DNA of 64,000 nucleotides from an uncultured Planctomycetales bacterium (GTDB lineage: Bacteria; Omnitrophota; Gorgyraeia; Aquiviventales; Aquiviventaceae): assembly GCA_964373175.1 (NCBI GenBank), contig CAYJTP010000004.1:6651-70650 (forward strand). Direction: 5' to 3'. Position numbers and translations under genes: made by a program. Below the pieces are notes generated by a model. It did not search any database and was not told the DNA's origin. It saw only the letters and a list, made by a program, of their open reading frames with translations. The stretch's first letter is position 1. Each line of letters opens with the position of its first letter. This document shows positions 14,182 through 62,338 of the stretch, piece by piece.

Positions 14182-14184
14182 AGC

Positions 14185-16322: not shown

Positions 16323-16338
16323 CGCATCATCTCCTCAC

Positions 16339-18290: not shown

Positions 18291-18356
18291 GGTCCATAGT
18301 CCATAGTCAACAACGAGGTTGCCGGTGGACCATCGACGATTGACTATGGACTATCG
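18279..18356. repeat. Tandem TCCATAGTC/TCCATGGTC octamer repeats (x4) with a downstream inverted copy (gactatggactatcgac).
   Basis: gtccatagtccatggtccatagtccatagtc…gactatggactatcgactg. It spans the aroE-pilD spacer and supplies the pilD initiation codons (ATGGACTATGGACTG = MDYGL). Confidence 0.7.
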
Positions 18357-19259
18357 ACTGCGTGTACGAAGCGCCTGCTCTACCGCCCGGCGCATCACGT
18401 CAATCGGCGGCGGCCGATGCCACCACAGCCTGAATGACTCGGCTCCTTGGTATACTAACATCGGAAGTCCATCCACCGCAAGCGCCCCGCGCCGTCTGGC
18501 CTCCAGCACCAGCTTCGTCGTTGGGGCGCGATAGACCAGGTCGACCACCACCAGCCCCTTGCGAATGGTGCGCGGGGGAACCGGAAGCGGATCGCCGAGG
18601 CGAAGCCCCAGACTCGTCGCATTCACCAGCAGGTCGACCTCCTGAAGACGCCGTCCAATCGCCCGGCGCTCGAAGGGAATCGTCGTCAGCTCGAGGCGCT
18701 CGTGTGTCCCCTGCCGTGATGCGGCACGTCGTAACCACCGGATGAACCTGTTCGTATGCGCCGGTGTGCGGTTCGCCACCGTGATGCGCTCAGGAACCGC
18801 TTGCGTCAGCACCCACCCCACCGCTCGGGCCGCTCCTCCCGTCCCTAAGAGCAGAATGCGTTTCCCCCGACTATGCCAGTGGAGCGCTTCACGGAGCACC
18901 TGACGAAATCCGGCGACATCGGTGTTATACCCGATGAAGCGGCTGCCCTTGCGAACCAGGGTATTCACAGCCCCAACGACCGAGGCCGACTCATCAAGGT
19001 CTGTCCGTGGATTCAACGACCGCATGATCCGCTCTTTGTGCGGAACGGTGATATTCAACCCATCAATGCCGGCCGCTGCTAAACCCTGAAACACCGGGCC
19101 AAGGACTCGGGGCGGGACTTCGAACGGCGCATAGATGGCATCCAGCCCAAGGGCGTCAAAGGCCGCCGTATGCATGAGGGGAGACAGGCTGTGACTGATC
19201 GGGTAGCCGACCACCCCGAAGACACGCGTCATTGGAACGTGGCACGGGGCATGAGACAA
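18351..19259 (-). CDS. aroE: Shikimate dehydrogenase
   Basis: …VFGVVGYPISHSLSPLMHTAAFDALGLDAIYAPFEV… and an NADP-binding GTGGAARAV motif. The likely true start is the internal Met (MTRVFGVV, ~19232). Confidence 0.85.
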   Translation of the reverse strand: MSHAPCHVPMTRVFGVVGYPISHSLSPLMHTAAFDALGLDAIYAPFEVPPRVLGPVFQGLAAAGIDGLNITVPHKERIMRSLNPRTDLDESASVVGAVNTLVRKGSRFIGYNTDVAGFRQVLREALHWHSRGKRILLLGTGGAARAVGWVLTQAVPERITVANRTPAHTNRFIRWLRRAASRQGTHERLELTTIPFERRAIGRRLQEVDLLVNATSLGLRLGDPLPVPPRTIRKGLVVVDLVYRAPTTKLVLEARRRGALAVDGLPMLVYQGAESFRLWWHRPPPIDVMRRAVEQALRTRSR

Positions 19260-19318
19260 GGGGCAAGGGGATTATGCGGGGCTTTCTGCCCCACGCCCCG
19301 TGTCTCACGCCCCATATT

Positions 19319-20902
<1,584 letters not shown>

Positions 20903-20997
20903 GGAATGTCTCGACTAAATCAGGGGCGAGGGACGTGGGGCACGGGGCGTGGGCTCTCTGAGGCCGCCTTCGCCCCCTGTCTCCTGCCCCTTGCCCC

Positions 20998-21252: not shown

Positions 21253-22367
<1,115 letters not shown>

Positions 22368-26694: not shown

Positions 26695-27120
26695 GTTTCG
26701 TGACCCGTGATTCGTGGCTCGTGACCCGTCAGAGACTATGAATGAGTCTGACAAGCATGCGAGTTTCGTGGTTCACGGCTTCTGCGATGATCTGCATTTG
26801 CGGTGGATGCACATATCTCCTTCTTTGAGCGATAATCAACAATGTGTCCAACTCAGCACACGAACCTAACGAGACGTAAAGATGCTGCTGGTACTCCTTG
26901 GTATGGTGCCTGACAAAGCCTTCAGCGATATTCGTTGGGATTGACACGGCCGCACGTCTCATCTGACTGCTTAACCCATACATCTCCGATTGCGGAAAAG
27001 TCTCTGTCAGTTCGTAAACCAGACCGACGATTTCAACACCTTTTTGCCACACTTGAAGATCTTTATAGTCCTTCACCTTCATCGGCAGTTTACGGATCAC
27101 GGGTCACTGGTCACGAGTCA
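26695..27120. mobile_element. Low-GC cassette carrying a four-helix-bundle gene, flanked by inverted repeats built from GTGACCCGTGA units
   Basis: Left flank ttcgtgacccgtgattcgtggctcgtgacccgtcag. Right flank cggatcacgggtcactggtcacgagtcacggc, which is the reverse-complement arrangement. The enclosed gene is ~48% GC against ~62% for its neighbours. Confidence 0.55.
26729..27100 (-). CDS. Four-helix-bundle protein of the 23S rRNA intervening-sequence protein family
   Basis: 123 aa. …WQKGVEIVGLVYELTETFPQSEMYGLSSQMRRAAVSIPTNIAEGFVRHHTKEYQQHLYVSLGSCAELDT… matches this family as recalled. Confidence 0.7.
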   Translation of the reverse strand: MIRKLPMKVKDYKDLQVWQKGVEIVGLVYELTETFPQSEMYGLSSQMRRAAVSIPTNIAEGFVRHHTKEYQQHLYVSLGSCAELDTLLIIAQRRRYVHPPQMQIIAEAVNHETRMLVRLIHSL

Positions 27121-27613
27121 CGGCAAGTTTCTGGACCAGTTGGGATGAACGGGGCCCGTGGCTGATCGCCGCGATGGTCCGCTGGTTGGTCGTCCGATGG
27201 GTCAGGTAGATTTCGAGGTAGTCCTCTGGGAGACAGCCGCTGAATCGATCCGCCCACTCAATCACCGTCGCCTTCTTTGACGAGAACACCCATTCCAGGT
27301 CCAACCAGACGGCGGAGGCCGCGCCCTCCAACCGATACCCGTCGATATGGATCAGGGGGAGGCGTCCTTGATGCTCGCGTAAGAGGATAAAGGTCGGGCT
27401 TTTCACGCCTCCCGGATCGATGCCAAGCCCTTTCGCGATCCCTTGCACGAAGGTCGTCTTGCCACTGCCCAGTTCCCCCACCAGACCCACCACATCCCCC
27501 TGTGCCAGGAGCTCGCCGAGCCGCTCGCCGAGTTGGTGGGTCTCCTCCACCGAGCGGCTGATCAGTTCAAAAATGTTTGAAGCCTTTTGGGATGAGCGAG
27601 GTGATGCGGCCAT
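27104..27613 (-). CDS. tsaE: tRNA threonylcarbamoyladenosine biosynthesis ATPase TsaE (YjeE)
   Basis: Walker A VVGLVGELGSGKTTFVQGIAKGLG. ~160 aa. Confidence 0.85.
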   Translation of the reverse strand: MAASPRSSQKASNIFELISRSVEETHQLGERLGELLAQGDVVGLVGELGSGKTTFVQGIAKGLGIDPGGVKSPTFILLREHQGRLPLIHIDGYRLEGAASAVWLDLEWVFSSKKATVIEWADRFSGCLPEDYLEIYLTHRTTNQRTIAAISHGPRSSQLVQKLAVTRDQ

Positions 27614-31326: not shown

Positions 31327-32391
31327 TCAGGGGCGTGGGGCGTGGGGCGTGGGGCGTGGGGCATCGCTCTGACCGTGCCCCTCGTCTCTCGCCCCCTGCC
31401 CCAACAAATCAAGCCATTCTTCGCGTAAGAGGGTCCCGACCAATCGGGGGCTCACCATCTGCTCAAGGGACCCCCATAACTCAATGAGCCGGAGGCCCGT
31501 CTCCACGCAGCGCTCGCTGTCCACCTGCTTCGCTTGCCGATGGATCGTCGTGGCGGCGTCCCGATGGCTCACCAGCGACTCATCCGCCACGGCCGCAACC
31601 GCAAGGTCACGAAGCCACGCAATCGACCCCATGAGCCAGGAAGCCACTTCCTGACGGTCCATCGGGACCGCCCATCCCAGCCACGGAGCTGGCGAGGCTG
31701 CACCAAACTGCGCGACCATTCCCTCCAGCGCCTTCCACTGCGTCATCACCTCAAGTGCCCGCGAGAGGCTCCCTTGGGCCAGACGGCTGATGGCCTGCGC
31801 AATCTGTGGAGGACAGGCGTGCCTGGTGACCAGCGAGTCTTCGATGAGGGAAGCGGACAGCCGAGCAAACCGAATGACCTGGCATCGCGAGACAATCGTC
31901 GCAAGGCAGCGGGCGGGCTGATCGGTCAGGAGAACAAACCGCGCGTGGGCGGGCGGTTCTTCGAGCGACTTCAGGAGGATGTTCCCCGCTTCCTCGGTCA
32001 ACCGATCCGCCCCATCCACGATCACCACCTGACACGTCCCCATGAAGGGACGCAGCGCAATCCGGCCTAACACGCCCCGAACCTCATCGATCCGAATCAG
32101 CTCTGAGGCGCCATGCGGGAAAAGCCCGTGCACATCAGGATGGACCTGGCGGTCGATCCGCTGACAGCTGTCGCAGCGATCACAGGAGTCGCTGTCGCCG
32201 TGTTCGCAGTTGAGGGCTTTAGCTAATGTTCTCGCCACGAGGCGCTTGCCGACCCCATCCGGTCCCACAAAGAGATACGCAAGCGCCAGACGCTGGCGGC
32301 TCGCGTGGGTCTGCAAGATCCGAAGGGCAAGGGCTTGTCCATGAATCTCCGTCCACGCCATCCGACCGAGTCCTATCCTGAAGGCCGCCAC
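31327..32391 (-). CDS. holB: DNA polymerase III delta-prime subunit
   Basis: AAA+ fold with AYLFVGPDGVGKRLVARTLAKALNCEH and the Zn module CDRCDSCQ. The C-terminal tail (…DAPRPTPHAPRP) is encoded by GGGGCGTGGGGCGTGGGG repeats. Confidence 0.85.
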   Translation of the reverse strand: MAAFRIGLGRMAWTEIHGQALALRILQTHASRQRLALAYLFVGPDGVGKRLVARTLAKALNCEHGDSDSCDRCDSCQRIDRQVHPDVHGLFPHGASELIRIDEVRGVLGRIALRPFMGTCQVVIVDGADRLTEEAGNILLKSLEEPPAHARFVLLTDQPARCLATIVSRCQVIRFARLSASLIEDSLVTRHACPPQIAQAISRLAQGSLSRALEVMTQWKALEGMVAQFGAASPAPWLGWAVPMDRQEVASWLMGSIAWLRDLAVAAVADESLVSHRDAATTIHRQAKQVDSERCVETGLRLIELWGSLEQMVSPRLVGTLLREEWLDLLGQGARDEGHGQSDAPRPTPHAPRP

Positions 32392-39274: not shown

Positions 39275-39372
39275 ACTTCGCGATCAGAAGACAGAGGTCA
39301 GAAGTCAGAGGACAGGCGCGGCCGAGCTTATTGGGTACCTGTCTTCTGTCGTCTGTCTTCTGTCTTCTGTCC
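39275..39372. repeat. Heptamer-repeat element, copy f: inverted pair or hairpin between mlaD and radA
   Basis: gatcagaagacagaggtcagaagtcagaggacagg…ctgtcttctgtcgtctgtcttctgtcttctgtcc. Confidence 0.8.
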
Positions 39373-40101
39373 CTTCGGACGGATCAGGAGTTTCCAGGGG
39401 TGTTCTCGGAGATCATCGACAAACAGGACGATGCGCTGGTAGAGATCCTCGTCAAACAGGAGCTTCCCGAGATTGCCTTCACCGCCTTCCGCGTGGTACA
39501 TCGCCACGTTGAGCCGTTCGCCCAACAACCGCCACTGCCGTGTCGCATCCCGAGCCTCCTGCAAGGCCTCTTTGAGATAGATGCGCGCTTCGGGGTCCCC
39601 GACCAGCGCATTCAACCCTTCCAGGGCTCGCTTAAACTCGGTGAGGACTTCGTTGGACCGTTGGATGACTTGTTCGGTGGACACCGGGGGTCTGCCGATC
39701 AACAGATCCGTGGCTTTGACGAGCGCTCCGGTCCCAGCCCCGGGGATGATCTCGAGGTATTTCTCCCCTAACAACCCAAACGTGCTGATGGCGGCGATGT
39801 CGTCCGTCCGAATCTGCAGCCGGCGGGGCACGCGCGCGATCAATTCGACCTTGGGCCGCGAGGGATCCGATGGATAGATGATCCGCACATCCTCGACCTT
39901 GCCCACTTCGACCCCAGCGTACTGCACCGGAGAGCCCCGCGCGATCCCGTTGGCCGCGTCAAACACGACGTGCAACGTCAGCCCGGGCTGGAAGTAGGTC
40001 GCCAGGTCCCCGATGGCAAACAGAAACACCACCAGCATGACCATCCCCGAGATGATGAACGCCCCCACCTTCATCTCGAGTGACACGACCCGTTGCTGCA
40101 T
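39328..40101 (-). CDS. mlaD: MCE-family protein MlaD (outer-membrane lipid asymmetry maintenance) with a heptamer-encoded C-terminal tail
   Basis: TM helix plus MCE domain (…VVFDAANGIARGSPVQYAGVEVGKVEDVRI…). Ends …[21 protein letters not shown]. The preferred start is the Met at ~40101, adjacent to the mlaF stop. Confidence 0.8.
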   Translation of the reverse strand: MQQRVVSLEMKVGAFIISGMVMLVVFLFAIGDLATYFQPGLTLHVVFDAANGIARGSPVQYAGVEVGKVEDVRIIYPSDPSRPKVELIARVPRRLQIRTDDIAAISTFGLLGEKYLEIIPGAGTGALVKATDLLIGRPPVSTEQVIQRSNEVLTEFKRALEGLNALVGDPEARIYLKEALQEARDATRQWRLLGERLNVAMYHAEGGEGNLGKLLFDEDLYQRIVLFVDDLREHPWKLLIRPKGQKTEDRRQKTGTQ

Positions 40102-40103
40102 CG

Positions 40104-40919
40104 TCACGATCCCTTTCGCAGGACTTGCCTCCACAAGGGCTTGCGCCACTGGGTCAAGATCCGGCGATCCGGCAGCCCCTCCTGGATGGGCCCCATCGCG
40201 TGCCCCTGGATAAACTGTTGCACGATCGGGTTCTTCGACGCCTTGATGGCGTCTGGCGTCCCCACCTCCACAATGGCACCATTGTAAAGCATCGCGAGGC
40301 GATCTGCCACTTTGTAGGCGCTGCGCATATCATGGGTGACAACCACGGAGGTCACCCGGAGGCGATCGTGCAGGGTGACGATGAGGTCATTGATCACGTC
40401 CCCCATGATCGGATCGACCCCGGTAGTGGGTTCATCATAGAGGATCATTTCCGGATTCATGGCCAGTGCCCGGGCGAGCCCTGCCCGCTTGCGCATCCCG
40501 CCAGACAGCTCCGCGGGATGGAGGTCCTCGACCCCCTCCAGCCCGACAAGCGCCAGGCACTCCCGAACGCGCTGCCGAATCGCGGCGGGATCCATAGTGG
40601 TATGCTCCCGCAAGGGGAACGCGACGTTCTCCCCCACCGTCATCGAGTCAAACAGCGCGGCTCCCTGAAAGAGCATCCCGAACTTTTTCCGGAGCTCGTC
40701 GAGGGACCGGCCGGTGAGCTGCGTGACGTCGATCTCATCCACCAGCACCGATCCCTGCTCGGGCTTCATCAAGCCGATGATGTGCTTCAACAGCACGGAT
40801 TTGCCGCATCCGGAGCGCCCGATGACCACCATCGTCTCGCCGGTCTTGATCGTCAGGTCCAGGTGGTCCAGGACCAGATGATGGTTGAATGTTTTGGTGA
40901 GTTCCTTGATTTCGATCAT
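40104..40919 (-). CDS. mlaF: ABC transporter ATP-binding protein MlaF
   Basis: Walker A GRSGCGKS, signature LSGGMRKRAGLARA, Walker B ILYDEPTTGVDP. Confidence 0.9.
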   Translation of the reverse strand: MIEIKELTKTFNHHLVLDHLDLTIKTGETMVVIGRSGCGKSVLLKHIIGLMKPEQGSVLVDEIDVTQLTGRSLDELRKKFGMLFQGAALFDSMTVGENVAFPLREHTTMDPAAIRQRVRECLALVGLEGVEDLHPAELSGGMRKRAGLARALAMNPEMILYDEPTTGVDPIMGDVINDLIVTLHDRLRVTSVVVTHDMRSAYKVADRLAMLYNGAIVEVGTPDAIKASKNPIVQQFIQGHAMGPIQEGLPDRRILTQWRKPLWRQVLRKGS

Positions 40920-41007
40920 CCGCCTACCTAGGGGGCAAGGGACGAGAGACGTGGGGCGAGGAACTGGAAATCCCCACGCCCCTTGACCCCCGCCCCGCCC
41001 CCCGTCT

Positions 41008-41805
41008 TCATCGCCCGATGAAGTAGAACGCCGCCGTGATGAGACAGTCAGACGCGATGATGAGGATGAAGGACGTCACCACCGCCCTCGTGGTCGCGCG
41101 GCCCACCCCTTCCGCACCCCCCTCGGTCCGAAACCCCTCAAAGCAACTCACCACGCAGATGATCAGGGCAAAGACACACGACTTCAACAACCCAGAGCCG
41201 AGATCCTTGAAGGCCAGCGGGGTGAAGGTCATCTGCCAATAGAGGCTGGGCAGGATCCCCAGCTTCACGGTCCCAATCAGAAACCCCCCGGCAATCCCAA
41301 TCGCATCTGCCCACACGGTCAGCAAGGGCAGCGCCACGAGCATGGCCAGCAACCTTGGCACGATGAGGTAGCGTACCGGGTCGGTCGCCAGCGTCATGAG
41401 CGCATCGATCTGCTCCGTCACTTTCATGGTCCCGAGCTCCGCCGCAATCGCAGAGCCCACCCGTCCTGCCACAATGAGCGCGGTCATGACCGGGCCGATC
41501 TCTCGCACCACGGACAAGGCCACGAGGCTGGCGATATAGATCTCGGCGGCCAAGCGCTGCATCTGGTAGGCGCTCTGAAAGGCGAGGACCATCCCCACAA
41601 ACAACAACGACAGCGACACGATGAACCAGGACTGCACCCCGATCTTCCAGAGTTCATAGATGACGGCTTTGGCGCGAAGCGGCTTGACGAAACACCCGCC
41701 GACCGATTGCGCCAACAGGACGCCCAGATGCCCGGCGTAGTCCGCAATCTGCACCACCCAGGCCCCGGCTAATGCCACGGGGACGGCGACGCGGGAAACC
41801 TTCAT
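41008..41805 (-). CDS. mlaE: ABC transporter permease MlaE
   Basis: 265 aa multi-TM with the MlaE conserved region …EIGPVMTALIVAGRVGSAIAAELGTMKVTEQIDAL…. Confidence 0.9.
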   Translation of the reverse strand: MKVSRVAVPVALAGAWVVQIADYAGHLGVLLAQSVGGCFVKPLRAKAVIYELWKIGVQSWFIVSLSLLFVGMVLAFQSAYQMQRLAAEIYIASLVALSVVREIGPVMTALIVAGRVGSAIAAELGTMKVTEQIDALMTLATDPVRYLIVPRLLAMLVALPLLTVWADAIGIAGGFLIGTVKLGILPSLYWQMTFTPLAFKDLGSGLLKSCVFALIICVVSCFEGFRTEGGAEGVGRATTRAVVTSFILIIASDCLITAAFYFIGR

Positions 41806-44705: not shown

Positions 44706-44742
44706 ATTTCCGCCAGAGGCGGATCCGCCTTCGGCGGAGAAC
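44706..44742. repeat. REP-type palindrome TCCGCCAGAGGCGGATCCGCCTTCGGCGGAG. Other copies at ~8885-8925, ~60800-60845 and ~61380-61420.
   Basis: ccgccagaggcggatccgccttcggcggag. Compare ccgccaaaggcggatccgcctctggcggag (8885) and ccgccggaggcggatccgcccctcgcc (60800). Confidence 0.75.
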
Positions 44743-46491: not shown

Positions 46492-46666
46492 CCTCTTACT
46501 AGTCTAGCAGGTTTTCAACGGGAGGCAAAGTGGGCGCCTGTTAGAGCTGGTTCCACAACCTCCCGTGGCTGTGGGCTGGGGGCTGTGGGCTCTGGGCACG
46601 GGCGACAGACGACCCCGAGCCCCGAACCCTGAGCCCTCAGCCGAGAAACGGGTTTGAAAGATGCTG

Positions 46667-49583: not shown

Positions 49584-49628
49584 CTCAGACTTCAGACATG
49601 AGACAAGAGACTAGAGACATGAGACTTA
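49577..49628. repeat. Heptamer-repeat element, copy g
   Basis: tctcagacttcagacatgagacaagagactagagacatgagactt, between the lolC start and the low-GC membrane gene. Confidence 0.75.
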
Positions 49629-50073: not shown

Positions 50074-51582
50074 TCACTCAGGTTTCAACAAGGGAAATAA
50101 AATCACATCCTTGATTGAAGGCTGGTCGAACAAGAGCATCGCTAATCGGTCGACCCCAAGGCCCAACCCTGTGGCCGGCGGCATGCCGTATTCCAGTGCC
50201 TCAAGAAAGTCTTCGTCAACCATTCGGGGGGGCGAGGGGCGTGGGGCACGGGGCGAGGATCGGGTTTTCCCTCGCCCCCGGTCTCCCGCCCCCTGCCCCT
50301 GTTCCTTTAATTGCGCTTCAAACCGTCGTCGCTGCTCAATCGGATCATTCAATTCCGAGTAGGCGTTGGCGACCTCAAAACCCCCGATGAACAGCTCAAA
50401 CCGCTCCGCGATGAGTGGGTTGTCCAGCCGGCTTTTCGCCAAGGGTGAGAGCTCGGTCCAGTAGTCCGTCACAAAGACCGGCACGTCCTTGGTCTTGGGT
50501 TCCACGAGCTGCTCCACGACATGGAGGATCTGGGAGCGTGTCTGGGCTTTGAGCTCGACCTTCGGAAATCCCGACTTCGGCGCTTTCAACTTGCGCTGCA
50601 TCGCTTCAAGTCCATCTTGAGGACCCAAGTCGTAGCCGGTCTTGAGCAGCTCAGTGAATGAGATGATTTCCCAGTCTTTGGCCAAATCGATTGCCTGGCC
50701 TTGATAGGTCAATTGCAACCGTCCCAGCGTGTGCGTCGCGGCCCCCCGGATGAGTTCTTGGACCAACTTCATCATGTACGTGTAGTCCTCATAGGCGCAG
50801 TAGGCTTCGAGCATCGTAAATTCAGGATTGTGTTTGGTGGAGAGCCCTTCGTTGCGAAACGATCGGTTGAGCTCATAGACCTTCTCAAAGCCGCCCACGA
50901 GCAGTTTCTTGAGATACAGCTCCGGAGCGAGGCGCAGATACAGCTCACACCCCAACGTCTGATGATGGGTGACAAACGGCTCGCCCGTCGCCCCGCCTGG
51001 GATCGGATGCATCATGGGCGTTTCGACCTCGAGGTAGCCGTGCGCGTTGAGCGTGGAGCGCAGGCTGTCAAGCAGCCGGGTGCGCTGCTCGAATGCCCGA
51101 CGGACGGGCTCATTCGCGATGAGATCCAGATACCGTTTGCGATAGCGGATCTCCACGTCGCGCAGCCCATGCCATTTCTCCGGCAGGGGTTTCAGCGACT
51201 TTGCCAGCAAGGTGAAGCGGCTGACCTGAATGGTGATCTCGCCGGTCTTGGTTTGGCACAACCGGCCTTCCACCCCAAGGCAATCCCCGAGATCGATGTT
51301 GTCAAAGAGCTGATAGGCGGCCTCGCCCAGTTGCTCTTGGCGAAGGCACAGTTGGATCTTGCCGCTTGCGTCACGAAGATCCGCGAAGGTGAGTGCGCCG
51401 TGAGAACGTTTGGCGCTCAGGCGACCGGCGGTCGTGACCGTTTCGCCGTCGTGGAAGTGCTCCACCAACCACTGGATGGATCGGGTCTTGGGAAACTTGC
51501 CCCCATATGGCTGGATGCCGTGTGAGCGCAACGTGTCGCGGTGCTTTCGTCGTGCGGCTGTAAGCTCATCATAGGTACCCAT
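50074..51582 (-). CDS. lysS: Lysyl-tRNA synthetase (class II) carrying an in-frame ~25-aa palindromic-element insertion near the C-terminus
   Basis: OB-fold anticodon-binding N-terminus, class II motifs (…FRNEGLSTKHNPEFTMLE…), then …RRRFEAQLKEQGQGAGDRGRGKTRSSPRAPRPSPPRMVDEDFLEALEYGMPPATGLGLGVDRL… E. coli has …[37 protein letters not shown]…. Confidence 0.95.
   Translation of the reverse strand: MGTYDELTAARRKHRDTLRSHGIQPYGGKFPKTRSIQWLVEHFHDGETVTTAGRLSAKRSHGALTFADLRDASGKIQLCLRQEQLGEAAYQLFDNIDLGDCLGVEGRLCQTKTGEITIQVSRFTLLAKSLKPLPEKWHGLRDVEIRYRKRYLDLIANEPVRRAFEQRTRLLDSLRSTLNAHGYLEVETPMMHPIPGGATGEPFVTHHQTLGCELYLRLAPELYLKKLLVGGFEKVYELNRSFRNEGLSTKHNPEFTMLEAYCAYEDYTYMMKLVQELIRGAATHTLGRLQLTYQGQAIDLAKDWEIISFTELLKTGYDLGPQDGLEAMQRKLKAPKSGFPKVELKAQTRSQILHVVEQLVEPKTKDVPVFVTDYWTELSPLAKSRLDNPLIAERFELFIGGFEVANAYSELNDPIEQRRRFEAQLKEQGQGAGDRGRGKTRSSPRAPRPSPPRMVDEDFLEALEYGMPPATGLGLGVDRLAMLLFDQPSIKDVILFPLLKPE
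50226..50302. repeat. GC-rich hairpin element (GGGGCGAGGGGCGTGGGGCACGGGGCGAGG … CCTCGCCCCCGGTCTCCCGCCCCCTGCCCC) inserted in frame in lysS
   Basis: Read directly. It is translated as QGQGAGDRGRGKTRSSPRAPRPSPP. Related non-coding copies at ~20920-21000, ~31330-31400, ~40925-41000 and ~19250-19320. Confidence 0.75.
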
Positions 51583-51812: not shown

Positions 51813-53381
51813 TTACGTTGTCCTAACCCTGTGTTTGACGAGGGGTTGGAACCAGAGCCATCCAAAGGCCACCACAAGACACAGCCACGCAAACCAGTCT
51901 CCCCACCTGGCATACAGGGTGTGAGACTGACTCGGCTGCACGTCGCAGACCGAAAACCCCTCAACAAAGAGCTCCTTGCCCTTCGAGTTCTGGACGCTGG
52001 CCTGCCAACGGCCGGTTTCATCAATGCAGCCGGACCAGCCGGTGTTGGCCGCACGGATCATCGGCACGCGCAGTTCCACGGCTCTGAACGCCGAGGCTTG
52101 TGCATGCTGGTACGCGGCCGCCGTATCGCCAAACCACGCGTCGTTGGTGATCGTAACCAACATCTGAGCTCCCCGGTTGACAAATTGTCGAGCCAACCCT
52201 GGGAAGATGTCTTCGAAACAGATCAACACACTAAAGCGGGGCGGGGGGCGGGGGGCGGGGGGCGGGGAAACCAACTCATGCCCGTGCCCCACGTCTCTCG
52301 CCCCATGCCCCTCCACGTCAAATACGGTGTACTCATGGCCTGGCACAAAGTTGCCGATCGGCGGCAAGACTCCCCGCAGCCACGGAAAGACTGACTCCAG
52401 AGGGATGAATTCCCCGAAAGGCACCAGATGAAGCTTGTCGTACCGTGTCAGGATGGCTCCCTCGGCATCCAGCAACACGGCGCTATTCGTCAGATACCAC
52501 GTGCCGTCCCGCAAGACACCCATCGGCGCACCGACCAACAAGGGCGTCTGGATCGATTGGGCCAATTGCTTGATCTGCATCGTCATCTGAGCATCTAAAC
52601 CAACATAGCCGGGTACCGAGGTTTCCGGCCACACGATAAGCTGCGGGTGGTGGCGAGCCGCTTCGTGCGTGAGCCGTTCATAGCGCTCAACAATGGACTG
52701 CTGAAACGCCTCGTCCCATTTTTCCTCTTGGGGGATGTTGCCTTGGACGACGGCGATCTTGAGCGGTGTGGTGGGAACAAACTGCTGAAGACGCGCTTTG
52801 CCATACGCCCAGCTTGCAACCACACAACCAAGTGCCAGGGTCATCATGGGAATGACGCGGTGCGCCTCACGCTGGCTCAGATAGCTCGCAATCGCCACAT
52901 TCACCATGACCAGCAGAAACGACACGCCCCAGACACCAGTTACGTCAGCGACTTGGATGGCCGTCAATGCTGGTGTCTGCGAATAGCCCAGGAGGTTCCA
53001 TCCAAAACCCGAGAGGAGATGACTACGCAGGTACTCAAGCGCAACCCACGCAGAGGGAATAAGAAGGTGATGGGTGATGGGTGATGGGTGATGGGTGAAC
53101 TTATGAGCGAGCCAGCCAAATACGCCGAAAAAGAGCGCGAGGTATGCGCAGAGCAGGGTCAATCCCACAAGCGTCACATGCACAAGCCACCAAATGGTGC
53201 CAAGGAAAAACACAAGCCCGACGAGATACGACCAGCCAAATGCTTGCCGCGGGCTCAGCGTCTGCAGACTGATCAGCCATGGGACCAGCGCCACCCACGC
53301 GCACCACGGCTGGTTCCAGTTCGGGAAAGAGAGAGCCAGCAGGACGGCGCTACTCAGCGCCAGGAGGAGCGATTGCAACAC
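51813..53381 (-). CDS. lnt: Apolipoprotein N-acyltransferase carrying an in-frame ~23-aa GC-rich element insertion in the CN-hydrolase domain
   Basis: N-terminal multi-TM region plus CN hydrolase domain (…IAVVQGNIPQEEKW…, …VLICFEDIFP…). Insertion …VFDVEGHGARDVGHGHELVSPPPAPRPPPRFSVLICFE… The start is read as GTG at 53379-53381. Confidence 0.85.
   Translation of the reverse strand: MLQSLLLALSSAVLLALSFPNWNQPWCAWVALVPWLISLQTLSPRQAFGWSYLVGLVFFLGTIWWLVHVTLVGLTLLCAYLALFFGVFGWLAHKFTHHPSPITHHLLIPSAWVALEYLRSHLLSGFGWNLLGYSQTPALTAIQVADVTGVWGVSFLLVMVNVAIASYLSQREAHRVIPMMTLALGCVVASWAYGKARLQQFVPTTPLKIAVVQGNIPQEEKWDEAFQQSIVERYERLTHEAARHHPQLIVWPETSVPGYVGLDAQMTMQIKQLAQSIQTPLLVGAPMGVLRDGTWYLTNSAVLLDAEGAILTRYDKLHLVPFGEFIPLESVFPWLRGVLPPIGNFVPGHEYTVFDVEGHGARDVGHGHELVSPPPAPRPPPRFSVLICFEDIFPGLARQFVNRGAQMLVTITNDAWFGDTAAAYQHAQASAFRAVELRVPMIRAANTGWSGCIDETGRWQASVQNSKGKELFVEGFSVCDVQPSQSHTLYARWGDWFAWLCLVVAFGWLWFQPLVKHRVRTT
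52237..52316. repeat. GC-rich element (GGCGGGGGGCGGGGGGCGGGGGGCGGGG … CCCGTGCCCCACGTCTCTCGCCCCATGCCCCTCC) inserted in frame in lnt
   Basis: Read directly. It is translated as EGHGARDVGHGHELVSPPPAPRPPP. Same GGGGCRNGGGGCAC family as the lysS element. Confidence 0.7.
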
Positions 53382-53391: not shown

Positions 53392-53679
53392 TTAGGGATG
53401 CCAGATAAGGCGCTGAACCGGAACAGCGTAGACGTCCTTCCGATGTCCGATGGTGATAATCCACACCGTGTGGCTTTCGATGCGGTAGATGATCCGATAA
53501 TTTCCTACTCGAAGCTTCCAGTAGCCTTTCAATTGGTGTCGTAGCGGCTCTCCGTAATAGGCAGGCTCGAGGGCGAGCCGCTGCTCGAGGGCCCGTTGAA
53601 TGCGATCGCGAATGTCACGGTTAAGACGAGGGAGGTCTTCCCGCAGGACGGCAGGATGGTACGACAGCCGGTAGGGCAT
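53392..53679 (-). CDS. relE: RelE/ParE-family type II toxin
   Basis: MPYRLSYHPAVLREDLPRL…LKGYWKLRVGNYRIIYRIESHTVWIITIGHRKDVY… Its start overlaps the antitoxin stop by 1 nt (TGATG). Confidence 0.8.
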   Translation of the reverse strand: MPYRLSYHPAVLREDLPRLNRDIRDRIQRALEQRLALEPAYYGEPLRHQLKGYWKLRVGNYRIIYRIESHTVWIITIGHRKDVYAVPVQRLIWHP

Positions 53680-53927
53680 TACCGGCGTCGCGTGCGGCGC
53701 CGTCCCCAGACTTCTTCGTGGGTCAGTGCGGTCTTTCGATCGAAGGTGGTCCAACGCGCATGGGCGGCCTTGGCCCAGTACGCATCTTCGTGCAATTCAA
53801 GCGCCTCACGGATCAAGTCACGGGCCTTCAGCGACAGCGAGACCTTGTCACGGGCCGCAAGTCGCGCGACGGAACGGAACGTCGGTGGCTCTAAGACAAC
53901 ATTCAATCGGGGTCGTTTTGTCGGCAT
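53679..53927 (-). CDS. Type II antitoxin, ribbon-helix-helix (RelB/ParD/CopG-like)
   Basis: 82 aa. N-terminal beta strand plus helices (RLNVVLEPPTFRSVARLAARDKVSLSLKARDLIREALE). Positioned and coupled with relE. Confidence 0.65.
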   Translation of the reverse strand: MPTKRPRLNVVLEPPTFRSVARLAARDKVSLSLKARDLIREALELHEDAYWAKAAHARWTTFDRKTALTHEEVWGRRRTRRR

Positions 53928-53978
53928 CGAGTCTCACCTCCGCAATGAGTGTATCAGAAGTGATGAACTCTGTCAACA

Positions 53979-54062
53979 CGCGCACCACGGCTGGTTCCAG
54001 TTTGGAAACGAGAAAACGAGGAGGACGGCGTTACTCAGCGCCAAGAGAGGCGGTCGTCTCAA
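53979..54062 (-). pseudogene. Diverged duplicate of the lnt 5' end (first ~27 codons), on the far side of the relBE cassette
   Basis: gcgcaccacggctggttccagtttggaaacgagaaaacgaggaggacggcgttactcagcgccaagagaggcgg is ~85% identical to 53299-53378 (gcgcaccacggctggttccagttcgggaaagagagagccagcaggacggcgctactcagcgccaggaggagcg). It translates to RRPPLLALSNAVLLVFSFPNWNQPWCAC*. The lnt N-terminus is MLQSLLLALSSAVLLALSFPNWNQPWCAW…. Confidence 0.8.
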
Positions 54063-54111: not shown

Positions 54112-54168
54112 ACATTCAGTCTCTTGTCTCATGTCTGACATCTGTCCTCTGTCGTCTGACATCTGATT
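54112..54168. repeat. Heptamer-repeat element, copy h
   Basis: cagtctcttgtctcatgtctgacatctgtcctctgtcgtctgacatctg, immediately 3' of secA. Confidence 0.75.
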
Positions 54169-57349: not shown

Positions 57350-57408
57350 CAGATGACAGACATCAGACCACAGACGTCAGACGACAGAAAACAGAGGACA
57401 GAACATGG
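57348..57408. repeat. Heptamer-repeat element, copy i
   Basis: catcagatgacagacatcagaccacagacgtcagacgacagaaaacagaggacagaac, between the prfB stop and the secA start. Confidence 0.75.
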
Positions 57409-60662: not shown

Positions 60663-60796
60663 CTAGAGTCAATCACCAAATTCCAAATCCCAAATTCCAA
60701 ATAAGCACCAATAACCAAGCACCAATCACCAAACCAAAGGCTCATGCCCTCTTGAGCAGGTTGATGATTGGAATTTGGTCATTGGAACTTGTTTGG

Positions 60797-62338
60797 TTAT
60801 TGTCCGCCGGAGGCGGATCCGCCCCTCGCCTTGAACGAGAGGGCGGAGGATTTGGTGATTGGTGATTGCGACAGTTGTTGGACAAGTGCTCTGGCGTTGG
60901 GTTCAGAAATACGTGCCACCCTGGCAATCTCCGAAAGGCTCGCGTGCTTGAGGCGATCAACCGACCCGAAGTGGGCAAGGAGCGCACGGGCTCGCCGGGG
61001 GCCGATGCCGGAAATCTCCTCAAGCGCAGAGCAGCTCATGGGCTTCCCCCGCAATCGCCGATGGTAGGCAATAGCAAACCGGTGCGCTTCGTCGCGGATG
61101 CGCTGGATCAAGTGCAAGACGGGTGAGGTGGGCAGCAAGACAATCGGATGTGGCTGATCCGGCAGAAAAATTTCCTCGTGCTGTTTGGCCAATCCCAAAA
61201 TCGGCAGGGCCGGATGGAGCGACGCGAGCTCCTCGCGCGCGGCATTCAACTGCCCCCGCCCGCCATCGACGAGGATGAGATCCGGCTGTGGCAGCTCGGT
61301 GGCAAGCGAACCGCTGTAGCGGCGCCGAATCACCTCGCCCATCATGGCGCAGTCATCTCCGCCCCAGCGTTCAGCGCGCGGGGCGGATCCGCCCCCTGAC
61401 TTGGACGGGCGGGCGGAGATGCCTGCCACTGTTTCGATCTTGAAGCGGCGGTAGTGGCGTTTGAACGGCTTGCCTTCCACAAAGGTCACCAGGGATCCGA
61501 CCGCAAAGGTCCCGGAGATGTTGGAGATATCAAACGCCTCGATCCGACGGGGGAGCACGGGAAGCTTCAACGCCACCTGGAGCTGTTCCAGGGGACCGGC
61601 GTGGGCGGATTTCTCCTTCGCGACGATCACCGAGGTCAATGCCTGGATCTGATCGCGCAGCCTGGCGGCTTCTTCGAATCGTTGCGCCCGCGAGGCCTGG
61701 GCCATGCGCTTCGAGAGCTCCCGCAGCAGATCATCCCGCTTGCCTTCCAGGAAGGCGAGGAGATCGTCGACGATCCGCTGGTAGGCAGCCTCATCAAGAT
61801 ATCCCACACAGGGCGCCAGGCACTGCCCCAGGTGGTATTCCAGACACGGCGTCTTGGGGAAGGTGCGGCACGTCCGAAGCGGAAAGACCCGCCGCATGAA
61901 CTGCAGGGCGTGGCGCAGCAGCCCGGCATCCACATACGGGCCAAAATAGCGCGCGCCATCCGGTCTGCGAGAGCGCGTCACGATCAGCCGCGGAAACGGT
62001 TCGTTGGTGAGTTTCAAGAGAGGAAAACTTTTATCATCCCGGTAGGCCACGTTGTATTTCGGCTGGTGCGCCTTGATGAGTTGAGACTCCAGGAGCAAGG
62101 CCTCGGCTTCCGACGCGGTGGCCCGCACCTCCAGATCGCTGATCCATTGGACGAGGCGGGTGATGCGCGGGGAAAGATCGCGTGAGGCGTGGAAATAGGA
62201 ACTGACGCGCTTGCGAAGACTCAGGGCTTTGCCGACGTACAGGACCTCCCCCTGCGCGTTTTTGAAGAGGTAGACGCCCGGCTGATCAGGTAACGTGGTT
62301 AGGCGCCTGCCTGCCGCGCCTCTGAGGGGTATAGTCAT
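60797..62338 (-). CDS. uvrC: Excinuclease ABC subunit C. The preferred start is ATG at 62336-62338, overlapping the murJ stop as ATGA.
   Basis: GIY-YIG (PDQPGVYLFKNAQGEVLYVGKALSLRKRVSSYF), UvrB-interacting UVR motif (FEEAARLRDQIQAL), RNase-H-like endonuclease domain, (HhH)2 (ISGIGPRRARALLAHFGS). The last ~20 listed residues are encoded by a REP copy. Confidence 0.9.
   Translation of the reverse strand: MTIPLRGAAGRRLTTLPDQPGVYLFKNAQGEVLYVGKALSLRKRVSSYFHASRDLSPRITRLVQWISDLEVRATASEAEALLLESQLIKAHQPKYNVAYRDDKSFPLLKLTNEPFPRLIVTRSRRPDGARYFGPYVDAGLLRHALQFMRRVFPLRTCRTFPKTPCLEYHLGQCLAPCVGYLDEAAYQRIVDDLLAFLEGKRDDLLRELSKRMAQASRAQRFEEAARLRDQIQALTSVIVAKEKSAHAGPLEQLQVALKLPVLPRRIEAFDISNISGTFAVGSLVTFVEGKPFKRHYRRFKIETVAGISARPSKSGGGSAPRAERWGGDDCAMMGEVIRRRYSGSLATELPQPDLILVDGGRGQLNAAREELASLHPALPILGLAKQHEEIFLPDQPHPIVLLPTSPVLHLIQRIRDEAHRFAIAYHRRLRGKPMSCSALEEISGIGPRRARALLAHFGSVDRLKHASLSEIARVARISEPNARALVQQLSQSPITKSSALSFKARGGSASGGQ

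Follow-up and report, generated by a model that had tools for sequence, protein, structure and literature searches.

The GC-rich stretch that lies in frame in the lnt gene of the 64-kb piece of DNA analysed here (the window) is probably a cargo-less miniature copy of a dispersed, heptamer-armed hairpin element of the type of an IVS-like cassette, and from sequence comparison we place the probability of this reading at roughly 0.65. Such an element consists of two arms of about 30 nt, each with about four 7-nt units, round a short loop. It would have entered lnt as a single piece, about 60-66 nt long. The insertion may have survived because it was free of stop codons, had a length divisible by three, and fell within a beta-turn on the surface, where the strand running to the catalytic Cys388 has its far end. 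Translation would yield a loop of about 21-25 residues, rich first in Gly/Arg and then in Pro, that is disordered and serves no function by itself, and the second arm (B-arm) would later have been homogenised in place by slippage.

The host gene encodes apolipoprotein N-acyltransferase. Its product matches Pfam LNT_N (5e-37) and CN_hydrolase (2e-29), with Lnt domains only, and phmmer returns Lnt structures from E. coli and P. aeruginosa with E-values of about 1e-40. The element places about 21 (21-25) extra residues in the CN-hydrolase domain, after the TVF strand and directly before the FSVLIC(388)FED strand that bears the catalytic cysteine, a position at which E. coli Lnt has only a tight turn, ...PPLSANGIEL.... 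The predicted translation includes ...TVFDVEGHGARDVGHGHELVSPPPAPRPPPRFSVLICFED..., identical to the string given in the original prediction, and the insert stretch can be read, from the inferred translation, as GHGARDVGHGHELVSPPPAPRPPPR. The insert is probably translated into protein. In the AF2 model (pLDDT 88.6, pTM 0.89) the protein is confident outside the insert; pLDDT falls below 50 at residues 360-370 only, residues 356-381 are without secondary structure, and the strand at 382-387 follows, leading to Cys388. The insert looks like a tolerated, disordered loop in this model. A GC-rich repeat in frame within the CN-hydrolase domain, as originally predicted, is confirmed by translation, Pfam and AF2.

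Tandem Repeats Finder reports a run of period 7 at 52238-52267 (4.3 copies, 100% matches, unit GGGGCGG), and the plus-strand string CCCGTGCCCCACGTCTCTCGCCCC lies beside it at 52282-52305. Both are arms of a single hairpin on the coding strand. The prediction had described a (GGCGGGG)n run and then a CCCGTG... stretch; the two parts are present as described, but they are not separate. Its limits of 52237-52316 were right to within a few bases, and are refined in Table 1 together with the positions of the other features.

Table 1. Positions of the lnt element, its relatives and their parts in the window.
Feature	Position	Strand	Basis
lnt (apolipoprotein N-acyltransferase), 522 aa, host gene	51813..53381	-	Pfam, PDB chains, AF2
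lnt hairpin, 76-nt imperfect palindrome with arms as inverted repeats	52236-52311	coding strand -	sequence
lnt A-arm, GGGGCAT GGGGCGA GAGACGT GGGGCAC GGG; encodes (E)GHGARDVGHG	52281..52311	-	aligns with A-arms of 13 other copies
lnt hairpin loop, 13 nt, CATGAGTTGGTTT; encodes HELV(S)	52268..52280	-	sequence
lnt B-arm, (CCCCGCC)x4 + CCGC, perfect heptamer run; encodes SPPPAPRPPPR	52236..52267	-	TRF
Second heptamer tract in lnt, (GGTGATG)x4.7, one perfect arm only; encodes HHPSPITHH, part of a variable loop between helices	53066..53098	-	TRF
lysS hairpin, in frame in gene 50074..51582; encodes GQGAGDRGRGKTRSSPRAPRPSPP	50226..50299	-	sister of lnt copy
Hairpin encoding the C-terminal tail (GQGARDEGHGQSDAPRPTPHAPRP*) of a DNA polymerase III delta' homologue (holB-like, 31327..32391)	31330..31402	-	GC family
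Hairpin between convergent genes (40080..40931 +; mlaE 41008..41805 -)	40932..41003	.	GC family
Intergenic hairpin just upstream of leuA/HMGL-like gene 19319..20902	20923..20997	-	GC family
Hairpin in the spacer of leuA-like 19319..20902 and aroE-like 18351..19259	19241..19313	-	GC family
Full-length relative of another heptamer type, arms with four-helix-bundle ORF (26729..27100; PF05635, TIGR02436), between tsaE and tsaB	26698..27123	-	Pfam, NCBIfam
Upstream arm of cassette 26698..27123, CGTGACT CGTGACC AGTGACC CGTGATC			
Downstream arm of cassette 26698..27123, ACGGGTC ACGAGCC ACGAATC ACGGGTC ACGAAAC			

The lnt hairpin belongs to a GC-rich family with six copies in the window, those in lnt and lysS among them. 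Strict tracts of period 7 number nine, while periods 5, 6 and 8-12 give none and shuffled sequences give none; a looser period-7 score finds 18 tracts against 0-1. The lnt repeat exceeds chance expectation. In repeat grouping, its arms cluster with repeats at 20923, 31330, 40932 and 50229 (family D6) and at 31370 and 50267 (family D9). The string CGTGGGGCACGGG occurs exactly three times in the window, and with up to two mismatches it has 11 matches against 4.2 expected. Across the family the A-arm is fixed as GGGGCAG GGGGCGR GAGACNN GGGGCRN GGG, and the B-arm is homogenised into repeats of CCCCACG, CCCTCGC or CCCCGCC. The proposed kinship of the lnt stretch with the lysS element holds, as the sister copy in lysS is 72% identical overall and has the GGGGCxx/GAGAC A-arm in common with it. 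The further claim that lnt is the fourth essential envelope or translation gene with such an insertion was not borne out in the window, where the only internal, in-frame copies of the GC family are those in lnt and lysS; one other copy is a tail and three are intergenic. The GC family is mainly a gene-boundary element, which lands inside genes only sometimes, and in several genomes its copies occupy both gene boundaries and the interior of unrelated housekeeping genes. It has many copies on metagenome contigs, where it is found in frame in RluD (twice) and ValS, makes up the tail of RibD and that of KdsB, and occupies the PriA 5' end.

Comparison of the lysS copies points to spread. The window and L084 copies agree at 36 of 37 nt over the A-arm and loop and at 86% overall, while the two LysS proteins share just 66% identity. 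The element is missing from LysS of L083, L085 and L081, and the closer relatives of the window, L082 and L083, have a different unit type or none at the lysS site. Four of six genomes have the same unit type in lnt and lysS; unit type tracks the genome and not the site or phylogeny. The GC family copies probably share ancestry by spread rather than by inheritance, which is part of the miniature-element explanation as a whole.

The turn that holds the insert was followed across Omnitrophota orthologues, for which the lnt loci of relatives were collected by exact-protein look-ups. Spacer length is bimodal in the 101 scorable Lnt proteins, with 16-19 aa in 19 of them and a mode at 37-39 aa; the gap between the classes (about 18 against about 37-39 aa) is about 21 aa, or 63 nt. 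Homologues that have no repeat DNA at this site (for example L083, P0007, P0010 and P0049) do not keep the extra residues either, which bears out the predicted insertion. Approximately 80% of the orthologues have a hairpin at the turn, built of unrelated heptamer units, and in eight genomes hairpins of unrelated units, including GGCTCAA/TCCAGCC, TTCGGAA/TTCCGAA, GTGGCGA/GTCACTC and GGGGCAG/CCCTCGC, sit at this same turn. The peptide of the turn is wholly different among orthologues (RNSEFGIRS..., SRLKAQGS..., GQGAGG...) because the DNA unit, read in three frames, sets it. Every insert-bearing orthologue among the Lnt proteins returned is in frame and stop-free, in a sample biased to intact gene calls. 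The recurrence at one turn could reflect an old resident element that is repeatedly overwritten, and not repeated new insertions. In L082 the second arm of the lnt unit is altered from TTGAGCC to TCCAGCC, avoiding the TGA of the perfect complement. Stop-codon avoidance was considered as the reason for imperfect arms; it accounts for L082 but was set aside for the GC family, of which the perfect complement is stop-free in every frame.

The connection to a larger element comes partly from the cassette that the window itself carries between tsaE and tsaB. The ORF of this cassette matches Pfam PF05635 at 2.8e-34 and NCBIfam TIGR02436 at 9e-32; its match to Avd (2.7e-5) is below the cutoff, with an equivalog score of 24 bits against a cutoff of 80. 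The cassette arms form a 25-nt inverted repeat that is 84% complementary. The PF05635/TIGR02436 protein is S23p, known from 23S-rRNA intervening sequences (IVSs) and a homologue of Avd in diversity-generating retroelements (DGRs); no catalytic activity is known for this four-helix-bundle protein. Arms flanking such an S23p/Avd-like gene are found in a metagenome contig and in Nostocales plasmids as well as in the window. The metagenome contig, L122, has a GC A-arm, then the four-helix-bundle ORF, then (CCCTCGC)x4. It is the sole case at the DNA level of GC arms round the ORF; the other four or five are read-through peptides, in which homologues of the L122 ORF read through GC A-arms at the N-terminus (MGQGAGDRG..., MIRGHGARDTGRG..., GEGRETRGKG; compare GHGARDVGHG in lnt). 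Arms are read through in at least 30 of 38 longer homologues, giving N-terminal VTRDPCPV... or C-terminal ...HGSRVTGHELC. Since GC arms also flank the four-helix-bundle gene, the lnt copy looks like a miniature of the IVS-like cassette from which the cargo is missing.

Similar cassettes are located in unrelated operons, with V-ATPase, hypC, nrd and cas genes as neighbours outside the window. On cyanobacterial plasmids, the 2.1 kb adjoining these ORFs hold 11 heptamer tracts, compared with 12 in 117 kb elsewhere. A search downstream of all metagenome A-arm matches, for other cargo closed off by a distant B-arm, yielded only L122 and one 90-nt loop. Spread would most likely have occurred through a trans-acting factor that recognises the heptad arms, for which the four-helix-bundle protein is the sole candidate in sight, or through hairpin-driven template switching or gene conversion between copies. 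A much wider proposal, which we regard as doubtful, is that PF05635/TIGR02436 genes and heptad arms together make a hitherto overlooked kind of cassette that propagates itself and spans several phyla (Omnitrophota, Planctomycetota, Nostocales, Gemmatimonadota and the Coxiella IVS). Each subunit of the pentameric protein would recognise one 7-nt unit, in arms some 4.5 heptads long, and hairpins without the ORF would be non-autonomous derivatives. It would explain heptanucleotide repeats (STRR and similar), the origin of 23S-rRNA IVSs, and the in-frame hairpins in lnt and lysS. Should the protein indeed recognise its own arms, odd N- and C-terminal extensions and low-complexity inserts from gene callers in these genomes would also be explained.

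Other explanations of the lnt stretch have to be weighed against the miniature element. Slippage clearly acts in the family, because the B-arms are perfect runs that are unlike between copies, and it could be asked whether the stretch is a home-grown microsatellite, formed by local heptamer expansion and then inverted duplication, with neither mobility nor kinship to cassettes. Heptamers are over-represented among the long simple sequence repeats of many bacteria, where slippage over a polymerase footprint of about 7 nt has been invoked (Mrazek 2007, as cited in PMC4692102 and PMC4679880). Single-arm tracts do occur, for example at 53066-53098, and the short lnt allele of L083 is itself a four-unit NTTCGNA tract. 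Nevertheless, the A-arm is no simple repeat: four different units follow one another in a set order, with the loop after them, and this arrangement recurs nearly unchanged at unrelated sites and in different genomes. Moreover, the same arms flank a gene, and the unit type goes with the genome rather than the site, so that a purely local origin is quite unlikely. Selection on a nucleic-acid structure, such as an RNA or DNA hairpin or G-quadruplex (G4) pacing membrane-protein translation, an RNase III site or an antisense terminator, is also unlikely, if slightly less so. Some hairpin is retained at the turn in about 80% of orthologues despite sequence replacement, but 19 of 101 are without any element. 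Both strands of the lnt element begin with four G-runs able to form G4, with an in-vitro precedent in GGGAATC and GGGGAYT (PMC4692102), and RNase III acts on the stems of IVSs (PMC4990558). G4 formation is impossible for most of the other unit types (GGCTCAA, TTCGGAA), and the G-quadruplex was rejected as a general principle, G-runs being missing from most unit types.

The GC copies fold as hairpins at -43 to -60 kcal/mol, and the strands of the lnt element differ greatly, the antisense RNA reaching -58.1 kcal/mol (z -4.2) and the sense RNA -45.5 (z -1.55), so the hairpin on the mRNA strand is not clearly better than shuffles. The sense fold is the weaker in 13 of 16 coding copies, which could be read as regulation. 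This strand asymmetry is shared by the family, the L122 cassette with its gene included, and so was not selected at lnt; a selected weakening of the sense strand at coding copies was dropped for the same reason. Covariation in the family arms is almost absent from the alignment of copies, which says nothing either way here because the pairs are nearly invariant G-C. An element found across many unrelated genes and spacers is more easily seen as a passenger than as a regulator of one particular gene. The fairly constant length of the loop (about +19 to +21 aa), present in most orthologues, and the argument that insertions of Rickettsia palindromic elements (RPEs) are compatible with fold and function (PMC10969869), could suggest an adaptive loop, in which the Gly/Arg- and Pro-rich residues would be a new interaction or regulatory surface of Lnt in Omnitrophota. 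Given that the loop peptide is not conserved among orthologues, that it is predicted to be disordered (AF2), and that the same peptide is found in LysS, RluD, ValS and KdsB, we find such an adaptation very improbable. Least credible of all, and extremely improbable, is that the stretch is absent from the mature product through IVS-, intron- or intein-like removal or translational bypassing, or that it is an assembly artefact. The element is hairpin-forming and kin to rRNA intervening sequences, which RNase III excises; however, such excision would leave the mRNA cut and unjoined, and the in-frame, stop-free state of the insert-bearing Lnt genes (again with the bias to intact gene calls) would be needless if the insert were removed. 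With only some 25 residues or 76 nt, the element falls short of intein size; it has no Rfam match at the gathering score that would suggest a self-splicing intron, and recurs in many independent assemblies. A sub-threshold resemblance to GC-rich miRNA hairpins in Rfam was taken as meaningless.

The miniature element can be compared with several known systems. RPEs are in-frame palindromic repeats in coding genes (Ogata et al. 2000; reviewed in PMC10969869). They share with the present element a dispersed, multi-copy, palindromic nature with hairpin potential, residence both in intergenic DNA and inside housekeeping ORFs, and in-frame, stop-free copies that are tolerated at the surface and leave the host protein intact. 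The element is not itself a member of the RPE families and resembles them in behaviour alone: RPEs measure about 100-150 bp, are not built of heptamers, have one conserved peptide per family and are confined to Rickettsia, whereas the Omnitrophota element is about 65-80 nt long (76 nt in lnt), is built of 7-nt units read in three frames and of interchangeable types, and has arms that also flank a four-helix-bundle gene.

Heptanucleotide repeats, including the cyanobacterial STRR, Xanthomonas GGGAATC, Nostoc GGGGAYT and Beggiatoaceae TAACTGA (PMC4692102, PMC4679880), are similar in their period of 7, few copies per tract, tracts within 0-50 bp of gene ends that may overlap stop codons, convergent pairs (common in Xanthomonas), G4 formation by G-rich types, and length and sequence differences between close relatives. 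The available text of these two papers describes them as intergenic simple repeats, and in-frame residence in essential genes, re-occupation of sites and association with four-helix-bundle genes are not reported there. The window has dispersed tandem 7-nt units in three copies or more (TRF), enriched over other periods and shuffles, as STRRs do. The canonical cyanobacterial STRR units are CCCCAGT, TTGGTCA and CAACAGT, and these are not matched by the units here (GGGGCGN, GAGACNT, CAGAAGA and others).

The 23S rRNA IVSs of Coxiella, Leptospira and Xanthomonas carry an S23p ORF, and in the Coxiella IVS (GACAGAT)x3 lies upstream of S23p (PMC4990558); this unit is also common in the window (CAGACAT, GAGACAT, CAGAAGA). 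An inverted-repeat stem round an optional PF05635 ORF, in forms with and without the ORF, is common to both systems; it is seen in the window at 26698-27123, in L122 and in cyanobacterial plasmids, while the lnt copy has the arms only. The sites of IVSs are helices 25 and 45 of 23S rRNA, from which RNase III removes them. The elements here lie in lnt, lysS, operon spacers and gene ends, the window has no rRNA, and excision, unlike that of an IVS, would destroy the message. REP/REPIN sequences with RAYT, and MITEs, are likewise short, imperfect palindromes, dispersed in high copy number, that as inverted copies bracket one small gene and whose miniatures far outnumber the gene-bearing form. The present element has terminal inverted repeats as MITEs do, but its cargo is PF05635/TIGR02436 and not a Y1 (Y1_Tnp) or DDE transposase, its arms are heptameric, and copies lie inside ORFs. 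No target-site duplication or conserved target sequence was seen by eye at the ends of about 15 copies, no duplication separates the empty from the filled lysS and lnt alleles, and no transposase-like gene is associated with the copies analysed, a four-helix-bundle protein being the only cargo found between the same arms. Avd of DGRs assembles as a basic pentamer, each subunit a four-helix bundle, and binds both nucleic acid and reverse transcriptase (PMC10053308). Homologues of the cargo match PF05635 and PF22296 (bAvd), with a weak NF033474 match, and beside the cassettes examined there is neither a reverse transcriptase nor a template/variable repeat pair.

Selfish palindromic DNA inside essential genes is rare, with Rickettsia as the main example. 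Here, in-frame palindromes that appear selfish are a routine feature of a whole uncultured lineage. The loops re-occupied again and again by different 7-nt units mark where, in nature, Lnt, LysS, RluD, ValS and other proteins tolerate insertions, and perfect heptamer runs inside essential genes are frameshift hazards. To our knowledge, bacterial heptanucleotide repeats, described in cyanobacteria in 1990, are still unexplained. Similarly, we know of no established origin of 23S rRNA intervening sequences and of no function outside DGRs for the very abundant four helix bundle protein/S23p family, a homologue of DGR Avd. The heptamer arms would tie these three together. In the literature searched, no paper on heptamers in Omnitrophota was found, an absence which does not prove novelty, and nothing beyond the note on the Coxiella IVS links four-helix-bundle/S23p genes to heptanucleotide repeats.

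Other hairpins with a 7-nt period abound in the window and in its close Omnitrophota relatives, and the heptamer units of the window include GGGGCGN, GAGACNT, CAGACAT, GAGACAT, CAGAAGA and others. The HHPSPITHH peptide of the second heptamer tract of lnt is also present in P0009, and other orthologues bear different heptamer types at that site.

The reading frame at 51813..53381 on the minus strand encodes an apolipoprotein N-acyltransferase (Pfam LNT_N 5e-37, CN_hydrolase 2e-29), which the solved Lnt structures of E. coli and P. aeruginosa match at about 1e-40, and whose nearest public proteins are the Lnt of Candidatus Omnitrophota MAGs. The peptide insert quoted in the original prediction is present exactly in the translation, which contains ...HEYTVFDVEGHGARDVGHGHELVSPPPAPRPPPRFSVLIC(388)FED.... 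The prediction had described the underlying DNA as a repeat run followed by a further string. Their sequence is correct, but they are not separate pieces: the coding strand reads A-arm, CATGAGTTGGTTT and B-arm, and the two are therefore arms of one imperfect palindrome. The B-arm has a period of 7 with 4.3 copies at 100% matches (Tandem Repeats Finder).

Strict period-7 tracts number nine in the window, with none for periods 5, 6 or 8-12 and none in shuffles; a looser score gives 18 against 0-1. Inverted pairing a few tens of bases apart is common among them. The expectation of more than a private sequence, in a repeat family that includes lysS, is borne out by six copies of the GC-rich type, and the lnt element is a member of this family. 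Additionally, AT-richer heptamer tracts (CAGAAGA, GAGACAT, AGTCCAT, AGTCGAA, GGCTGTG, CCAAATT and others), many in inverted pairs and almost all 4.3-4.7 units (about 30-33 nt) long, occupy short spacers of co-directional genes and overlap gene ends. Heptamer tracts also lie within the 3' ends of ilvC, a glycosyltransferase, uvrC and an unknown ORF, where they appear to extend the proteins past their Pfam domains; in ilvC, KARI_C stops at residue 327/372.

Positions and units of the hairpins, tracts and cassettes (window positions unless a locus or plasmid is named; arms given as first / second)
Feature	Position	Units or setting
lnt hairpin A-arm, coding strand (minus)	52311..52281	GGGGCAT GGGGCGA GAGACGT GGGGCAC GGG
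lnt hairpin loop, coding strand (minus)	52280..52268	CATGAGTTGGTTT
lnt hairpin B-arm, coding strand (minus)	52267..52236	(CCCCGCC)x4 CCGC
GC-family copy	19241-19313	intergenic
GC-family copy	20923-20997	intergenic
GC-family copy	31330-31402	C-terminal tail of DNA polymerase III delta' homologue, followed at once by the stop codon
GC-family copy	40932-41003	between convergent genes
GC-family copy	50226-50299	in frame in lysS
GC-family copy	52236-52311	in frame in lnt
AT-richer heptamer tracts	7869-7978, 11055-11128, 14178-14258, 15522-15553, 18277-18359, 21323-21377, 35816-35907, 39285-39371, 46567-46642, 49585-49625, 54119-54166, 57350-57402, 60676-60868	
Heptamer tracts within ORF 3' ends	21323-21377, 1205-1230, 60852-60868, 22503-22530	
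Lnt turn, L081		GGGGCAG / CCCTCGC
Lnt turn, L082		GGCTCAA / TCCAGCC
Lnt turn, L083		short (NTTCGNA)x4 tract only / none
Lnt turn, L084		GGGGCGR with GAGAC / pyrimidine-rich complement ACGTCTC CTGTCTC CCGCCCC TTGCCCC
Lnt turn, L085		decayed copy (both arms)
Lnt turn, L086		GTGGCGA / GTCACTC
Lnt turn, L087		TTCGGAA / TTCCGAA
Complete GC hairpin (among the matches listed), RluD-type pseudouridine synthase, two contigs		in frame; one with a second insert of another type
Complete GC hairpin (among the matches listed), ValS		in frame
Complete GC hairpin (among the matches listed), RibD		C-terminal tail
Complete GC hairpin (among the matches listed), KdsB		C-terminal tail, plus internal PPPAPRPPP variant resembling that of lnt
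Complete GC hairpin (among the matches listed), PriA		5' end
Window cassette, upstream arm	26698-26729	CGTGACT CGTGACC AGTGACC CGTGATC; overlaps tsaE stop codon
Window cassette, downstream arm	27092-27123	ACGGGTC ACGAGCC ACGAATC ACGGGTC ACGAAAC; ends at tsaB ATG
L122 cassette, A-arm		GGGGCAG GGGGCAG GAGACAA GGGGCGC GGGG; ORF 23 nt further on
L122 cassette, 3' end		TGA TTT then (CCCTCGC)x4
Plasmid arms, Nostoc edaphicum		GTAGGGA / TCCCTAC
Plasmid arms, Nostoc sp. C052		GGGAACA / CTGTTCC
Plasmid arms, Calothrix brevissima		AGGGTGT / CTACACC
Plasmid arms, N. punctiforme, gene 1		GTCGGAG / CGACCTC
Plasmid arms, N. punctiforme, gene 2		GGGTGTG / CCCTACA
Plasmid arms, Geminocystis sp. NIES-3709		AAGGGAA / TTCCCTT
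Plasmid arms, Anabaena sp. 90		CAGGTGA / TCACCTG, further from ORF
Plasmid arms, Nostoc sp. ATCC 53789		GGGAAAA / TTTTCCC
Plasmid arms, Nostoc PCC 7120 pGamma (L237)	7915-7949, 10371-10406	(GGCAGAG)n and (CTTCTGCC)n; ISL3 insertion parts one arm from ORF
Non-heptamer GC-rich palindromic family	25325-25394, 25877-25917, 28479-28560, 34450-34531	core GCCCGCCCCGGC...GCCGGGGCGGGC
Short palindromic family	1076-1164, 12609-12766, 25605-25646, 25943-25987	CCCTGCCCGCC...GGCAGGCGGG
Short palindromic family	8886-8920, 44706-44740, 60800-60848, 61349-61426	TCCGCCnnAGGCGGATCCGCC

The lnt element is an insertion relative to orthologues. E. coli Lnt joins the two strands here by nothing more than a tight turn (...PPLSANGIEL...), and in an alignment of 40 Omnitrophota Lnt the turn is short in P0003, P0007, P0010, P0011, P0038 and P0049, most others having about 20 additional residues. 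The spacer, scored in 101 of the 120 best homologues, is bimodal: 19 proteins have 16-19 aa, and the other peak is at 37-39 aa; the gap of about 21 aa equals 63 nt, or nine heptads, and a few longer spacers are apparently double inserts. The AlphaFold2 model, built with the Omnitrophota alignment, is confident (pLDDT 88.6, pTM 0.89), and residues 360-370 are its only segment with pLDDT below 50. Secondary structure is missing from about 356 to 381, followed by a strand at 382-387 and Cys388; the model thus predicts that the insert leaves a beta-turn as a disordered excursion at the N-terminal end of the strand bearing the catalytic cysteine.

DNA was compared at seven orthologous lnt loci (L081-L087), most of which keep the order secA-lnt-lysS-lolE. 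Heptamer repeat DNA is found in the Lnt turn at all seven, in unrelated units, although L083 has a short tract only and L085 a decayed copy. The insert peptides (RNSEFGIRS...SELRTPNSEL, SRLKAQGSR...SSLQPP and others) are no more than three-frame translations of 7-nt units, and none of the compared loci conserves the insert at the protein level. The second arm of L082, TCCAGCC, departs from the perfect complement TTGAGCC, in which a TGA would arise, and this shows that the ORF constrains the hairpin. Turnover in lysS parallels that in lnt: the GC family occupies the window and L084, GGCTCAA- or GGTTCAA-type units occupy L082, L086, L087 and another close relative, L001, while L081 has a short tract of a further type only, and L083 and L085 have no element. 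Unit types therefore turn over. As a separate observation, L084 carries a GGCTCCA/GCCTCCA heptamer hairpin within the 3' part of secA (3097-3164), a tract with no like in the window secA.

This turnover could reflect slow divergence in place or copying between sites. LysS and Lnt identity place the window with L082 and L083 (LysS 71-76%) and L084 in another clade (66%), yet the lysS elements of the window and L084 match at 36/37 positions in A-arm and loop (86% overall), while the same site holds another type in L082 and nothing in L083. The unit type is shared between lnt and lysS in four of six genomes with both sites filled (window, L082, L084, L001), and the two L082 elements are 88% identical. 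The unit type thus tracks the genome rather than phylogeny, and the lysS match across clades, together with the sharing within genomes, favours copying from site to site (transposition or gene conversion) over slow divergence in place. Slippage acts locally as well, since each B-arm is a perfect run of a single unit, and the unit varies between copies.

Close relatives (L001, L081-L087) are rich in period-7 tracts (about 35 in about 66 kb); more distant Omnitrophota have almost none, and the tracts are scarce in Nitrospirota, Desulfobacterota and other phyla (6 in 474 kb). A metagenome scan with the A-arm core GGGGCRNGAGACNNGGGGCR found complete GC hairpins, among the matches listed, in genes confirmed by Pfam. 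The metagenome contigs L094, L205 and L113 hold single proteins with at least two hairpin inserts of differing types: RluD (SRLQAAKVGLELGAES... insert plus GC copy), KdsB (internal PPPAPRPPP copy plus GC tail), and a 1682-aa amidohydrolase-like protein with several. Wherever the gene strand was verified (11/11 coding copies), the sense strand has the GAGAC-bearing A-arm ahead of the B-arm; peptide tolerance, transcription and replication are candidate causes of this polarity across the window, L084 and the metagenome contigs L090-L205.

The GC family is asymmetric, with GAGAC in the A-arm opposite GCCCC in the B-arm, and the arms still pair; A·C mismatches therefore arise in the sense RNA and G·U pairs in the antisense RNA. 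The lnt element folds at -45.5 kcal/mol in sense (z -1.55) and -58.1 in antisense (z -4.2), and in 13/16 coding copies the sense fold is the weaker one (mean difference 5.8 kcal/mol). RNAalifold on 14 copies gives three GGGGC/GCCCC helices with almost no covariation, and an Rfam search matched no family. G-quadruplexes would be possible for the GC type, since four G-runs open each strand, and not for most other types; other G-rich heptamers form them in vitro (PMC4692102).

Heptamer arms also enclose genes. The window cassette, with inverted arms as its exact borders between tsaE and tsaB, brackets a 123-aa ORF that matches PF05635 '23S rRNA-intervening sequence protein' (2.8e-34) and TIGR02436 'four helix bundle protein' (9e-32), with a weak, sub-cutoff match to DGR Avd. 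On the metagenome contig L122, the GC-family arms themselves enclose a four-helix-bundle ORF (phmmer 4e-29 to the window ORF), with an ORF ending just ahead and a putative ABC-transporter ATPase, by eye, downstream. Arms are therefore common to GC-family hairpins and four-helix-bundle cassettes. Homologues of the L122 ORF start with A-arm read-through (MGQGAGDRG..., MGQGAGE..., MIRGHGARDTGRG..., ...GEGRETRGKG...), of which MIRGHGARDTGRG is comparable to lnt GHGARDVGHG. At least 30 of 38 longer gene calls among window-ORF homologues read through the arms, as N-terminal VTRDPCPVTR... or C-terminal ...HGSRVTGHELC. Similar cassettes lie in unlike operons (a V-ATPase operon, beside hypC, beside a DUF374 gene), and 13/15 with readable flanking genes are co-oriented with their neighbours.

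This association holds generally. When 72,556 plasmids were searched with tblastn, 27 records contained the protein; nearly all come from heterocystous cyanobacteria (Nostoc 11, Calothrix 4, Trichormus, Anabaena, others), long known as hosts of STRR heptamer repeats, and inverted heptamer runs bracket the ORFs there. Across six stretches of 20 kb, the 2.1 kb beside the ORFs contain 11 period-7 tracts and the remaining 117 kb contain 12, roughly a 50-fold enrichment. The Calothrix PCC 7716 gene is an exception without arms; variants are direct runs in Pseudanabaena, direct period-8 repeats in Gemmatirosa, and inverted arms not of period 7 in Picosynechococcus. The Coxiella IVS carries (GACAGAT)x3 directly upstream of its S23p ORF (PMC4990558), a unit close to the window tracts CAGACAT, GAGACAT and CAGAAGA.

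Several plasmid loci bear separate mention. The L237 ISL3 transposase gene lies between upstream arm and ORF. Four-helix-bundle genes sit inside CRISPR-cas operons of Anabaena sp. 90 (L231, upstream of cas4), Pseudanabaena (L232, between cas6 and cas4) and Picosynechococcus (L239, between cas10 and cmr3), and in L228 on the opposite strand between two ribonucleotide reductase genes. An ORF-less hairpin of (GGCAGAG)x5, about 60 nt and (TGCCTTC)x5 on the Nostoc sp. C052 plasmid (L234 5955-6084) reads through in frame within the annotated 5' part of a hypothetical CDS; this may be the cyanobacterial equivalent of an in-frame insertion, or the gene call may be too long.

The best reading of the lnt element is that of an IVS-like cassette in miniature, without cargo. 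It must have reached lnt in this form, because a gene-bearing copy would kill lnt, and it would persist there because it is stop-free, a multiple of three in length and placed in a permissive turn. We infer that the insert is translated, without function, and mobile. The hairpin copies compared show no target-site duplications, and no transposase gene accompanies hairpins or cassettes, the four-helix-bundle protein being the sole cargo. Its DGR homologue Avd is described as a basic pentamer with nucleic acid and reverse transcriptase as binding partners (PMC10053308); speculatively, the arm length of about 4.3-4.7 heptads would match a pentamer with one heptad for each subunit. In the way it works the element resembles the Rickettsia palindromic elements (PMC10969869), yet it is not a member. 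It is heptamer-built like STRR and the Xanthomonas and Nostoc heptanucleotide repeats, although the literature on those treats them as simple repeats between genes. The full-length form looks like a 23S rRNA intervening sequence but lies outside rRNA, and the layout of the element is similar to REP/RAYT but without a transposase. No paper in the literature searched joins in-frame palindromic insertions, heptanucleotide repeats and IVS-like cassettes.

Elsewhere in lnt, a perfect single-arm (GGTGATG)x4.7 at 53066-53098 encodes HHPSPITHH, also present in P0009, in a loop between transmembrane helices; other orthologues have other heptamer types there (e.g. SDIRHQTSDI from CAGACAT). The site is another hot spot of Lnt, and the tract puts an essential gene at risk of frameshifts. 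A 76-nt direct repeat (53296-53371 and 53977-54052, 86% identical), with a leftover piece of the Lnt N-terminus (LLALSNAVLLVFSFPNWNQPWCA) encoded by the second copy, flanks a ParE-toxin/antitoxin pair (53392..53927), which suggests that the module inserted at the lnt 5' end and duplicated or displaced its start. The window also holds a non-heptamer GC-rich palindromic family (about 70-82 nt, 84-92% identical), two short palindromic families, the first including a 40-nt tandem pair at 12682-12766, and a 150-nt direct repeat (15547-15696 and 16334-16483, 79% identical, 787 nt apart).
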